Assembly (NCBI GenBank): GCA_964348385.1
Contig: CAYGCN010000001.1
Coordinates: 537 to 64,536 of the forward strand
Source: an uncultured Gemmatimonadaceae bacterium
Lineage (GTDB): Bacteria; Gemmatimonadota; Gemmatimonadetes; Gemmatimonadales; GWC2-71-9
Direction of reading: 5' to 3'
DNA: 64,000 nt
Every line of letters begins with the position of its first letter. Position 1 is the first letter of the stretch. The notes under the pieces were generated by a model. That model did not search any database. It was not told the DNA's origin and was given only the letters and a program-made list of their open reading frames with translations. Shown in pieces: positions 36,631-55,585 of this stretch. The position numbers were made by a program, and so were the translations under genes.

Positions 36631-37563
36631 CTATCTCCGCTCCATCGCCGCAGCCGCCAGTCGGGTGCGTTCCGTTTCCCACCGCACCCACACCACTGCG
36701 CCGAGAATCACCCCCATCGCCGCGAAGGTCCGGATCGAGACGTGCTCGTCCAGCACGGCCCACCCGAGGAGTACCGCGACGACGGTGTTCACGTATACCG
36801 ACGTCCCGACGAACGTCGGGGAGGCGTGCCGCAACAAGTACACGTAGCTTGTGAACGCGATGACGGAGCCGAAGACGATCAGATAGAGCACCGCACCGAC
36901 CCCCGCTGCCGACAGCGCCAGGGAGCCTGCCTCCCCCCGCAGGAGGCCCAGCAGTGCCAACACGGCGCCGCCCGCCAGCATCTGGAGCGCCGCGTGCACA
37001 TACGGCGGGGTATCGACCGGATGGCGCTTGGAGTAGATGGACCCCAGGGCCCAGGACGCCGACGCGACGAGGAGCGCGACGGCACCCCACAGGGCGGCGA
37101 CCCCGAACGTCCCGAGCGTATCACCCACGAGGAGAACCGTCCCGGCGAAGCCGACCAGCAGGCCAGTCACCTGTCGCGCCGTCGGGCGAGTCTCGCTCCC
37201 CGGAATCAGCGCATCGAACAGCGCCATCCACAGCGCGCCCGTCACGATCAGGATGGCGGCGAAGCCCGACTCCACCGTCTGCTCCGCCCAGATGACGAGT
37301 CCGTTGCCGATCGTGAGCAGCAGGATCCCGACCACGGCGGCGGTCCGCCAATCGCGGGCGCGCGTCGGGAGGCGGCGTCGGCGCAGTCGTGCAATGGCGA
37401 GGAGAATGGTCCCGGCAGCCACGAACCGGATCCCCCCAAACAGGGCGGGCGGGAGATGCTGCACCCCGATCCGGATCGCCAGGTACGTCGATCCCCAGAT
37501 CAGACTGATGGTGATGTAGGCCGCCAGAACACGGCCGGAGAGCGTGCGCATATTGGCTGGCAT
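36631..37563 (-). CDS. EamA/DMT-family transporter
   Basis: The last 310 codons of track ORF 36631..38442 (MPANMRTLSG...). Ten hydrophobic segments and two EamA-like halves. Confidence 0.8.
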   Translation of the reverse strand: MPANMRTLSGRVLAAYITISLIWGSTYLAIRIGVQHLPPALFGGIRFVAAGTILLAIARLRRRRLPTRARDWRTAAVVGILLLTIGNGLVIWAEQTVESGFAAILIVTGALWMALFDALIPGSETRPTARQVTGLLVGFAGTVLLVGDTLGTFGVAALWGAVALLVASASWALGSIYSKRHPVDTPPYVHAALQMLAGGAVLALLGLLRGEAGSLALSAAGVGAVLYLIVFGSVIAFTSYVYLLRHASPTFVGTSVYVNTVVAVLLGWAVLDEHVSIRTFAAMGVILGAVVWVRWETERTRLAAAAMERR

Positions 37564-37761
37564 CCGGTGCAGCGGTCGTGCGCGGGTGGAGATTCGTGAC
37601 GCGCCAAGCGTAGTGACACCCACTCGGGCCGGCAAGGCGCAGCGCTTCCGCGTCGCTGGCCGCGTATATTTCGGCGGCATCACGTCGTGGCGACGCCGCG
37701 CGGCGGTGCGAGCGGACTTCCGACCGGGCGGCGGCTCGGTGAGCACCACTGGAGGACTGGC

Positions 37762-38511
37762 ATGGCCGGCCACAGCAAGTGGAAGCAGATCAAGCACAAG
37801 AAGGCCGCGGCCGACGCCAAGCGCGGCGCGAAATTCACCAAACTCATCAAGGAGATCACCGTCGCCGCGCGCCAGGGAGGCGGGGACCCCGCCGGTAACG
37901 CGCGGCTGCGGACCGCGATCGCCAACGCTAAGACCGAGAACATGCCGGCCGACAACATCGATCGGGCGATCAAGAAGGGCACCGGCGAGCTGGAGGGCGT
38001 GACCTACGAGGAGGCCAGCTACGAGGGCTACGGACCGGGCGGGGTCGCCGTGTTCGTGCAGGTGACCAGTGACAATCTCAATCGGACCGTGGCGGCCGTC
38101 CGGCACATCTTCTCCAAGAATGGCGGGAGCCTCGGCGAGCCCAACTCGGTGGCCTGGCTGTTCGACAAGCGGGGCCTGATCTACGTCGACGCCGCCCGCT
38201 ATCCCGAAGACGTCGCCATGGAAGCGGCACTCGAGGCCGGCGCCGAGGATCTCACCACCGAAGACGGCCAGCATGTCATCACCACACGGCCGACCACACT
38301 CCACGCCGTGCGGGACGCCCTTGCCGAGCGCGGCATCGAGCCGGACGAGGCCGAGATCGGCATGAGCCCGACCTCGACGGTGCACATCGAGGGGAAGGAG
38401 GCCGAGCAGATGTTGCGGCTGCTGGACGCCTTGGAGGAGCACGACGACGTGTCCAAGGTGTTCAGCAACTTCGATATCGACGCGGAAACCCTCGCGGCGG
38501 TCGAGGGGTGA
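37762..38511 (+). CDS. yebC: YebC/PmpR-family transcriptional regulator
   Basis: Trimmed to the ATG at 37762 (GGAGGA upstream). The hallmark [23 protein letters not shown]-type N-terminus is present. Confidence 0.9.
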
Positions 38512-38996
38512 CCGTTCGGGTCCTCGGCATCGATCCCGGCACGACGGTCACGGGATACGGTGTCGTCGAGCCGGCGGACGGTCGGCTCGGTCACCTCATC
38601 GAGTGCGGCGTGATTCGAACGGCAGCCCGCGAGCCCCTGTGGACGCGGCTCGAGACCCTCCACCAAGGAATCACCGAGCTGATCGCAACCCATCGACCCG
38701 GTGTCCTGGCGCTGGAGAGCGTGTTCTACGCGAAGAACGTGCGAACGACGCTCACGCTGGGGCACGCGCGTGGTGTCATCCTCCTGGCGGCGGCACAGGG
38801 CGGCCTCGAGGTGGCGGAGTTCCCGCCGGCGACGGTCAAGAAGACCATCGTGGGTTCCGGAGGGGCCGCAAAGGCCCAGGTGGGGTTCATGGTGCAGCGG
38901 CTGCTCCAGCTCGCCGCGCCACCCGCCCCGGACGATGCCGCGGACGGCGTGGCGCTGGCCCTCACGTACCTCCTGACCCTGGCGCGCCGCCGATGA
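38508..38996 (+). CDS. ruvC: Crossover junction endodeoxyribonuclease RuvC
   Basis: [40 protein letters not shown] overlap with yebC. Confidence 0.9.
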
Positions 38997-39586
38997 TCGC
39001 GGGGGTGCGCGGCGTGCTTCACGCCAAGACGGGAGACCGCGTGCTGGTCGTGACGGATGGCGGGGTCACGTATGAGATCGCCGTGCCGCTCGGCGTGCTG
39101 GAGACCATGCCGGCGGTCGGCAACCGGGTGGAGCTCAAGACTGTGCTCGTGGTGCGCGATGACGGCTGGCTGCTGTTCGGCTTCGATGAAGATCACGAGC
39201 GGGCGTTGTTCCAACGGCTCCTCGGTGCCACGGGGGTGGGACCCAGGCTGGCGCTGGCCCTCGTCTCCACGTTGGGCGGTGCCCGGGTGGTGCGGTCGAT
39301 CAAGGAAGGCGATCTCGCGGCGCTGTGTACCGTGCCCGGCGTTGGCAAGAAGACGGCCGAGCGCATCGTCGTCGAGTTGAAGGACCGGCTCCGGGACATC
39401 GCGGCGCCGGGCGCGCCGGAAACCGCCGGCGCACCGACCGAGCAGGCCGTCCAGGCGCTCGTGAACCTCGGGTACCCGTCGGTCGAGGCGGAACGGGCCG
39501 TCCGCGCGGTCCTGGCCGAGGGGGAGCAGGCGCAGGCGGTTGACCTGATTCGCGGCGCGCTACATCTGTTAACAAAACGAAAGTGA
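38993..39586 (+). CDS. ruvA: Holliday junction branch migration complex subunit RuvA
   Basis: Within track ORF 38603..39586. ATG at 38993 (MIAGVRGVL...). Helix-hairpin-helix motif PGVGKKTAERIV. ATGA overlap with ruvC. Confidence 0.9.
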   Translation: MIAGVRGVLHAKTGDRVLVVTDGGVTYEIAVPLGVLETMPAVGNRVELKTVLVVRDDGWLLFGFDEDHERALFQRLLGATGVGPRLALALVSTLGGARVVRSIKEGDLAALCTVPGVGKKTAERIVVELKDRLRDIAAPGAPETAGAPTEQAVQALVNLGYPSVEAERAVRAVLAEGEQAQAVDLIRGALHLLTKRK

Positions 39587-39759
39587 TCGAGGCGATGCAG
39601 ACCGCAGAGTGGAATTGCACGAAGTGCGGCGTGACCAACCGGAAGCTGGTAGACGCCGATCAACACGAGGCGACTGATCGGTGTGTGACGTGTCATGCCC
39701 GGCACCGGCTCACCCGAGACGCCAGGCCGGTGCGCTGGAACGCCGTGGCGAAGTCGTGA
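39583..39759 (+). CDS. Unlisted 58-aa zinc-ribbon-like ORF between ruvA and ruvB
   Basis: Below the track's size cut-off. GTG at 39583 overlaps the ruvA stop as GTGA; an alternative ATG lies at 39595. Its TGA (39757-39759) overlaps the ruvB GTG as GTGA. Translation: (MIEA)[54 protein letters not shown], with CxxC...CxxC. About 80 percent of codon third positions are G or C by hand count. Confidence 0.5.
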
Positions 39760-40791
39760 GTCGCGCGCAGATCACCACCCCGGAGATCCTCCCCGAAGAG
39801 GCGTCGGCCGAGCAGTCGTTGCGGCCGTCGCAACTGAGCGAGTTCGTGGGGCAGGCAACCGTCAAGGAAAGCCTGCAGATCGCCATCGACGCGGCGAAGC
39901 AGCGGGGCGAGCCGCTGGACCACATCCTGTTCTTCGGCCCCCCCGGTCTCGGCAAGACCACGCTGGCCATTCTCCTCGCGCGCGAGATGGGGGTGAACAT
40001 CCGCACGACCAGCGGGCCCGTGTTGGAGAAAGCCGGTGATCTCGTGGGCCTGCTCACCACGCTGCGCCGAGGCGACGTCCTGTTTATCGACGAGATTCAC
40101 CGCCTCCGGCCTGCCCTCGAGGAATTCCTCTATCCGGCCATGGAGGACTTCCGGGTCGACGTCCGCATCGCCGAGGGCCCCAACGCGCAGACCATCCCCA
40201 TGAGCATCGAGCCCTTTACCCTGGTGGGCGCCTCGACGCGATACGGGATGCTGACACCGCCGATGCGGGCACGCTTCGGGATGGTCGAGCGGCTCGGGTA
40301 CTACCCAGCCGAGGATCTGGAGACGATCGTCGTGCGCTCGGCTGCCATTCTGGACGTGGGTGTCGATGCGGATGGGGCGCGCGAGATCGCCAAGCGGAGC
40401 CGCGGCACGCCCCGCGTCGCCAACCGGCTCCTCCGCCGCGTACGCGACTACGCACAAGTGCGCGCCGACGGGGCCATCACCCAGGCGGTGGCCGTGGCGG
40501 CGCTCAGCCGACTGAATGTCGACGAGTACGGGCTCGATGACATGGACGCCCGCATCCTGCAGATCATCATCGAGAAGTTCGACGGGGGTCCGGTGGGCCT
40601 GAACACCATCGCCGTGGCGGTCGGCGAAGACCCGGGAACGGTGGAGGAGGTGTACGAGCCGTTTCTCATCCAACAAGGCTTCCTGCACCGCACGCCGCGG
40701 GGCCGGACGGCGAGTCCGGGCGCGTACCGGCACTTCGGCTACACCCCGCCGTCCTCCGCGGGCGGCCAAGCGTCGATGTTCGACGGGGCCG

Positions 40792-40799
<8 letters not shown>
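39756..40799 (+). CDS. ruvB: Holliday junction branch migration DNA helicase RuvB
   Basis: Trimmed to the GTG at 39756. [12 protein letters not shown], Walker [21 protein letters not shown]. Confidence 0.9.
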
Positions 40800-43274
<2,475 letters not shown>

Positions 43275-55410: not shown

Positions 55411-55585
55411 CGTGCTGTGCCGTGCCCCCTTGCGCGGTCGCTTGGCAGGTCTTGCACAGCATCACACCGCGCATGTTGCAAATGACGCAGATGAACGCGC
55501 CACACTCGGCGCACGGATAGCCTTCGGACGCACGCTCCTCGTTGCCGCAGGCGCGGCAGATCATGATATCGGTTTCTTGACCCAT
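55403..55585 (-). CDS. 60-aa cysteine-rich protein with four CxxC pairs (double zinc-ribbon-like)
   Basis: The C-terminal 60 codons of the otherwise spurious 331-aa track ORF 55403..56398. ATG at 55583-55585 with GGGAG 5 nt upstream. Translation: MGQETDIMICRACGNEERASEGYPCAECGAFICVICNMRGVMLCKTCQATAQGGTAQHDG. It exactly fills the gap between the lipid-kinase stop (55597) and the HAD start (55410). Confidence 0.5.
   Translation of the reverse strand: MGQETDIMICRACGNEERASEGYPCAECGAFICVICNMRGVMLCKTCQATAQGGTAQHDG

Follow-up and report, generated by a model that had tools for sequence, protein, structure and literature searches.

The RuvABC machine is regarded as complete with its three proteins, and the ruv operon is known for carrying unrelated genes. 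In the full-text literature searched, no description was found of a small accessory subunit of RuvABC, of a gene located in the ruvA-ruvB interval or of a RuvAB partner with a zinc ribbon. In other systems, LysW/ArgW and Tim15/Zim17 are zinc ribbons of about 50 residues which dock on partner enzymes, and YacG-type regulators act by binding a large DNA-processing ATPase. Here, a ruv operon is described which contains a conserved fourth, uncharacterised zinc-ribbon gene, designated gene X. Homologues of X have already been deposited in the databases, but as unnamed predictions only.

The operon is located in a stretch of 64,000 nucleotides from an uncultured Gemmatimonadaceae bacterium (contig CAYGCN010000001.1), which is referred to as the window and to which all coordinates refer; the genes are encoded on the plus strand unless stated otherwise. 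The first gene of the coupled run codes for a protein of the YebC/TACO1 family (37762 to 38511, 249 amino acids; PF20772 and PF01709 were identified in the orthologous loci). It is followed by ruvC (38508 to 38996, 162 amino acids, with the Pfam domain RuvC), by ruvA (38993 to 39586, 197 amino acids, with RuvA_N, HHH_5 and RuvA_C) and by ruvB (39756 to 40799, 347 amino acids, with RuvB_N, AAA_lid_4 and RuvB_C). The queA gene (40792 to 41823) and then tgt are functionally unrelated members of the operon, after which yajC follows. The locus thus resembles the canonical yebC-ruvC-ruvA-ruvB arrangement, with all standard domains present in RuvC, RuvA and RuvB and with translational coupling of the genes, and differs from it by the fourth conserved gene between ruvA and ruvB.

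Gene X codes for a Cys4 zinc-ribbon protein of 58 amino acids and extends from a GTG at 39583 to a TGA at 39757 to 39759, the range 39583 to 39759 including the stop codon. An earlier note on this DNA had described an open reading frame of this length, joined to both neighbours by GTGA overlaps, and the frame is present as described; the spacer between ruvA and ruvB, given there as 170 nucleotides, is 169 nucleotides long. At the upstream overlap (39583 to 39586), the candidate start codon GTG (39583 to 39585) is interleaved with the ruvA stop codon TGA (39584 to 39586), and at the downstream overlap (39756 to 39759), the stop codon of X is interleaved with the true ruvB start codon GTG (39756 to 39758). 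Overlaps of four nucleotides also join yebC to ruvC (GTGA at 38508) and ruvC to ruvA (ATGA at 38993), so that the coupling which had been proposed for the whole operon holds for these four junctions, while ruvB and queA overlap by eight nucleotides. Signal scans revealed neither promoter-like nor terminator-like sites within yebC-ruvC-ruvA-X-ruvB, and the absence of both is consistent with a single transcript. A match to an Rfam family was also not obtained in this region. Upstream of yebC and on the opposite strand, a gene for an EamA-family transporter and a small gene with a weak match to PF27226 (AF_1845) were identified (together about 36631 to 37620 of the window, minus strand; 647 to 2090 of locus L001); the position of both genes is kept in close relatives and in several of the distant ones.

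An open frame of this size is by itself little proof of a gene, since such lengths are common in DNA with a GC content of 68%: in the window, 614 stretches of 58 or more codons are free of stops, and a run of 58 codons is open with a probability of about 0.28 per frame. The composition is coding-like, as the earlier note had also stated, with a third-position GC content of 0.80 in the frame of X and of 0.82 to 0.88 in the adjoining genes, compared to 0.60 and 0.52 in the two alternative frames of X. Two CxxC pairs are present (C12-x2-C15 and C34-x2-C37), separated by 18 residues rather than by the 20 first counted, and the pattern CxxC-x(10-30)-CxxC occurs just eight times in the 126,194 residues of the six-frame translation of the window. 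In the same scan, the sole other protein-like stretch with multiple CxxC motifs was a dense cysteine cluster (CRACGNEERASEGYPCAECGAFICVICNMRGVMLCKTC) in a 388-codon open frame around position 55558 on the minus strand. The case for X beyond chance is its conservation and not its open frame.

Two start codons are possible for X, and the protein accordingly has either 54 or 58 amino acids. The GTG at 39583, from which the frame was first read, is one in-frame candidate; an ATG at 39595 to 39597, which would give the 54-residue form beginning with MQTAEW, is better conserved among close relatives. In the window, GAGG is located two nucleotides upstream of this ATG, and in the clade to which the window belongs, an ATG two codons before the T-A-E-W motif was identified in every member, being the sole start in L015, L031, L034, L035, L038, L048, L050, L061 and L087. 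In L001, L014 and many distant relatives, ATGA replaces GTGA at the junction of the ruvA stop and the X start, and many distant relatives contain GGAGG as a ribosome-binding site 8 to 10 nucleotides before the ATG of X, inside the last codons of ruvA.

For ruvB, comparison with its relatives confirmed the start at 39756. The homology of ruvB begins exactly at this GTG, most relatives have an ATG or GTG at the corresponding position, and in six loci (L058, L078, L085, L056, L082 and L018) an in-frame stop codon is located zero to two codons upstream of the homologous ATG. In two public assemblies with an identical RuvA, by comparison, ruvB was called as a protein of 372 amino acids from a GTG at 39681, and X was not called (the loci behind these over-long calls are L090, 1719 to 2837, and L091, 3689 to 3886, and the added part corresponds to 39681 to 39755 of the window). 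This extension of ruvB overlies the final 25 codons of X, the invariant RPVRW motif among them, and is the reason why X is absent from the annotation of the two assemblies. The gene had been thought to be too short for annotation; the real cause is that gene callers extended ruvB to the GTG at 39681. It had also been regarded as unannotated, which is the case for these two assemblies but not for related metagenome-assembled genomes (MAGs), where X is called and labelled "hypothetical protein", "uncharacterized Zn finger protein" or, in IMG, "RPC12/RpoP". The over-extension of a downstream gene which erases a short real gene is a common annotation failure in GC-rich genomes, and X is recovered when ruvB is called again at its conserved start.

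The conservation of X was analysed on 83 distinct nucleotide sequences. The frame is unbroken in all of them, so that the frameshifts or stop codons in relatives which would have spoken against a gene were not found. The purifying selection for which the earlier note had proposed a dN/dS analysis was also detected: for common genome pairs, dN/dS values by the Nei-Gojobori method were 0.14 to 0.35 for X, similar to those for RuvA (0.10 to 0.38), and 0.04 to 0.24 for RuvB. In the alignment of X, column entropy peaks at the third codon positions. Fourteen residues are invariant in 83 of 83 sequences, namely E9, W10, C12, C15, G16, T18, N19, R20, D32, C34, C37, H41, V50 and W52, and T7, A8, T13, K21, L22, V35, R48, P49, R51 and A54 are nearly invariant. 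The first zinc knuckle, C12-T-K-C15 (39616 to 39627), is part of the invariant motif E-W-x-C-x2-C-G-x-T-N-R, and the second, C34-V-T-C37 (39682 to 39693), of the motif D-x-C-V-x-C-x3-H. Conserved across the 83 sequences is also the C-terminal motif R48-P-V-R-W52 (39724 to 39738), which forms strand 5 in the structural model described below; V50 and W52 are present in all 83 sequences, P49 and R51 in 82, and R48 in 80. Conservation, intact frame, low dN/dS and the synteny described below together rule out a chance open frame or a spacer with an irrelevant product, and on this comparative evidence X is almost certainly a functional gene.

A word-indexed search, which covered 5.8 billion proteins, identified homologues of X in 17 clusters of proteins with 54 to 61 amino acids and 55 to 89% identity. 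When 1.84 billion cluster representatives were searched exhaustively with a profile, 41 matches at E <= 0.001 and 20 at E <= 1e-10 were obtained, and with just 41 matches at the former threshold the family is narrow. With one genome scanned for each GTDB species, relatives of X were identified in at least 159 species genomes; the scan of viral contigs gave none. The labels of 79 of the 80 retained loci are Gemmatimonadota, Gemmatimonadales, Gemmatimonadaceae or Gemmatimonas sp. The exception is L018 (JBLMWC010000041.1), named "Bacillota bacterium MAG294", which contains a typical Gemmatimonadota ruvC-ruvA-X-ruvB locus with an X 66% identical to that of the window; this MAG is probably mis-binned. 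No cultured strain carrying X was found, the cluster names being those of MAGs or metagenomes only, and no Gemmatimonadota genome without X was found by the searches with RuvA, which returned close, uncultured relatives alone.

The gene order ruvC-ruvA-X-ruvB is present in all loci fetched, including those with a RuvA of as low as 47-50% identity, and no copy of X was seen in any other genomic context. The order is also kept for P0035 and for the most divergent X, P0041 (35% identity). In the P0041 locus (L092, JABAOE010035709.1, X at 1200 to 1364), which contains masked runs of N inside ruvC and ruvA, H41 is lost and RPVRW is changed to REPW, with X still between ruvA and ruvB; these changes could reflect a relaxed constraint in that lineage. 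X is fixed at the ruvA-ruvB junction across the Gemmatimonadales-type Gemmatimonadota. A true fusion of RuvA to X or of X to RuvB was not present among the 41 profile matches at E <= 0.001. The apparent fusions P0046, P0049, P0051 and P0053 contain garbled RuvA or RuvB segments and look like frameshifted metagenome assemblies, and the long profile match P0052 is an unrelated repeat protein.

The distances between the genes differ on the two sides of X. The gap from ruvA to X is -4 to +13 nucleotides in 70 of the 72 complete loci, while the gap from X to ruvB is -4 in 31 of the 72 and reaches up to 182 nucleotides elsewhere. Since X and ruvB are 32 to 182 nucleotides apart in about a quarter of the relatives, their coupling is not universal. 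In one Gemmatimonadales MAG (L083, 3175 to 5028), X directly follows ruvA and is separated from ruvB by two inserted genes; the insert of 1.85 kb codes for a GT2-like glycosyltransferase and an FkbM-like methyltransferase, as judged by eye from the sequences. Because X stays with ruvA despite the insert before ruvB, its tie to ruvA is the tighter of the two.

In one sub-clade, the spacer from X to ruvB is made of heptamer repeats. The sequence GAGAGGTGAGAGGTGAG is located at the stop codon of X, and its complement CCTCTCACTTCTCACCTCTCACCTCTTAC ends about 12 nucleotides before the ATG of ruvB. Spacers of this type were identified in L005 (3520 to 3613), L032 (3175 to 3241), L039 (3178 to 3271), L042 (3175 to 3244) and L059 (3176 to 3325), and also in L029, L054, L056, L066, L082 and L084. 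The five spacers which were folded gave a long RNA hairpin with a dG of -23 to -64 kcal/mol and a z of -2.7 to -6.0, and this hairpin is not followed by a T-run. Among the fetched loci the motif is nearly confined to the X-ruvB spacer, and it is absent from the window.

The AlphaFold2 model of X, based on an alignment of 18 sequences, has a pLDDT of 89.8 and a pTM of 0.69. Five strands are predicted, comprising residues 5-11, 18-24, 29-33, 40-45 and 51-56; the turn between strands 1 and 2 contains the first CxxC motif and that between strands 3 and 4 the second. The arrangement which defines the zinc-ribbon class, two beta-hairpin knuckles which each provide two Cys ligands and a small sheet, was found in this predicted structure, the cysteines of X being putative metal ligands. 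An all-beta zinc ribbon with an extra C-terminal strand is therefore a well-supported prediction for X, and the zinc-ribbon reading which had been drawn from the cysteine pattern agrees with the model. Presumably, the four invariant cysteines hold one metal ion. The C-terminal part of the protein is Arg-rich, with a net charge of about +5, and its last residues are A-V-A-K-S. A basic tail had been described at this position; its charge stands, but AlphaFold places strands 4 and 5 here and no loose tail, so that the Arg-rich C-terminal third belongs to the fold. The predicted pI of X is 8.9, with a family median of 9.4 and a family minimum of 6.0.

Scans of X and 27 members of the family against Pfam, NCBIfam and PHROGs gave sub-threshold generic zinc-ribbon matches alone. 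The top scores of X were obtained for Vps36-NZF-N in Pfam (17.6 bits), the FmdB family model TIGR02605 in NCBIfam (17.6), Zn_ribbon_8 (16.6) and RanBP2-type (14.4), and among the 27 members the commonest sub-threshold Pfam matches were Vps36-NZF (20), Zn_ribbon_8/FmdB (19) and RanBP2-type (13). In a profile search of PDB sequences, the best match was kinetoplastid mS66 with an E of 0.016, below significance, and Foldseek searches with the model against PDB and BFVD returned generic zinc ribbons, none at E <= 0.001. The nearest solved folds are LysW, with TM scores of 0.55-0.60 (0.58 for 3vpb_E), and Tim15 (2e2z, TM 0.61, rmsd 2.0 over 47 columns). X thus represents an unclassified zinc-ribbon family. 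No RuvA, RuvB or RuvC domain was found in it by the Pfam scan, in agreement with the view of the earlier note that such a protein is not part of the canonical resolvasome.

Several known families were considered and rejected for X. To the FmdB proteins of the Zn_ribbon_8 family, X is similar in being small and stand-alone, in its aromatic-x-C-x2-C-G knuckle, in the approximately 17-18 residues to the second C-x2-C and in being all-beta. However, the scores for PF09723 (16.6 against a cut-off of 34.4 bits) and TIGR02605 (17.6 against 31.3) are too low, and X has invariant or nearly invariant motifs of its own, namely TNRKL, RPVRW and H41; FmdB proteins, themselves of poorly defined function, have no known link to ruv genes. 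The first half of X fits the W-x-C-x2-C-x3-N pattern of RanBP2/NZF fingers (PF00641, PF16988) exactly, with W10, C12, C15 and N19 invariant. These fingers are eukaryotic modules which bind ubiquitin or RNA, and X differs from them by 14 residues instead of about 6 from the Asn to the second C-x2-C and by two extra strands; its scores of 14.4 and 17.6 bits are below the cut-off of 27. For RPC12/RpoP (COG1996, PF03604), 5 of 27 members match PF03604 with a best E of 0.031, and the corresponding IMG name is a generic automatic label. A rubredoxin was rejected on the second knuckle, which is CVTCH and not CPxCG, and on 13.9 against 45 bits for the rubredoxin-like NCBIfam family; rubredoxins in the PDB match X at E values of 0.1-3. 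Carriers of the LysW/ArgW type have an acidic C-terminus of the EDWGE type and are encoded in a cluster for lysine or arginine biosynthesis, whereas X, with its A-V-A-K-S terminus and its ruvA/ruvB context, has neither, and the Foldseek E is about 1. For Tim15/Zim17 (DNL-type), the likeness of the fold is not significant, and a DNL-type match was not obtained in the Pfam scan. YacG shares the four cysteines and a size of about 60 residues, but neither a sequence nor a fold match was obtained for X, and yacG is located outside the gyrase operon, unlike X inside the ruv operon.

For the role of X, the most likely reading from genomic context is that of a lineage-specific small partner of RuvAB, to which we assign a probability of about 0.5. 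We infer both the expression of X in this organism and any link of its product to RuvAB. In this model, X would be transcribed together with yebC-ruvC-ruvA-ruvB, and ribosomes would either reinitiate on it at the stop codon of ruvA or enter at a ribosome-binding site of its own. In the clade of the window, synthesis of RuvB likely depends on translation of X, as the stop codon of X overlaps the start of ruvB; by inspection, no obvious Shine-Dalgarno motif is located just upstream of the ruvB start in the window. X would then be made in a fixed proportion with RuvAB and may contact RuvA, RuvB or junction DNA by an invariant polar and basic surface, with E9, T18, N19, R20, K21, D32, H41, R48 and R51 as the proposed contact residues. 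In a more specific and tentative version, the resolvasome of the Gemmatimonadales would have X as a true fourth subunit, a zinc-ribbon adaptor which docks either on the AAA+ motor RuvB or on domain III of RuvA. As such a subunit, X might tune loading, ATPase cycling or the hand-off to RuvC.

Since the operon also carries the unrelated genes yebC, queA and tgt, a shared function is not provable by position alone, and for the same reason a serious rival is that X is a real zinc-ribbon protein which is carried along in the operon, with a function unrelated to Holliday junctions. It might act in translation or in the biology of tRNA, as do its neighbours yebC, queA and tgt, which belong to the same coupled run and have no known role at junctions, or it might be a generic small regulator of the FmdB type, as the generic nature of its top sub-threshold profiles would allow. 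Neither a fusion nor covariation ties X to RuvA or RuvB: partial correlations of distance matrices in a mirror-tree analysis were 0.26 for X-RuvB, 0.12 for X-RuvA and 0.04 for X-RuvC, values which are weak and provisional. However, X is located inside the ruvA-ruvB pair rather than at an operon edge, all fetched loci down to a RuvA identity of 47% keep it there, X stays attached to ruvA where the operon is interrupted, and no copy was seen in another context. An unrelated passenger is less probable than a partner of RuvAB, but more plausible than the readings which follow.

A further possibility, which corresponds to the nucleic-acid-binding accessory of the earlier note, is that X is a basic zinc ribbon which binds branched or single-stranded junction DNA directly, as Fpg or topoisomerase I do with their zinc fingers, and does not dock on RuvA or RuvB. 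The net positive charge, the basic pI both here and in the family median, and the conserved residues R20, K21, R48 and R51 would suit such a role, and DNA-binding zinc ribbons typically have a knuckle spacing like that of X. However, neither sequence nor fold searches gave a significant match to DNA-binding zinc fingers, the pI within the family extends down to 6.0, and the Arg-rich C-terminal part is modelled as strands and not as a flexible tail. Binding of nucleic acid by X is therefore possible, but direct DNA binding as its sole mode of action is improbable.

It is very improbable that the peptide is irrelevant and that the frame is either a translated spacer which hands ribosomes from ruvA to ruvB or a chance product of GC-rich DNA. 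The four-nucleotide overlaps at both ends and the number of open frames of this length in the window would be in line with it, but dN/dS is far below 1 and equal to that of RuvA, the 14 invariant residues include all four cysteines, the predicted fold is confident, X is kept where the overlap with ruvB is lost to spacers or to the 1.85-kb insertion, and no sign of an overlapping element was found in another frame or strand. Least probable of all is that 39681 to 39755 represents an N-terminal extension of RuvB and X is no separate gene, as the 372-residue calls in the two assemblies would have it, since the evidence for the start at 39756 argues against it, the Pfam match gains nothing from the added residues, and the RPVRW motif, invariant in X, is encoded by the codons in the overlap.

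X is a small protein which is constrained like RuvA, and its gene is fixed between ruvA and ruvB over a large part of the phylum. Should X be unrelated to RuvAB, it would represent one more uncharacterised zinc-ribbon family. If X is a true fourth subunit, bacterial RuvAB would have its first known small accessory factor, and the gene provides a cheap and testable lead for a lineage-specific control of branch migration.
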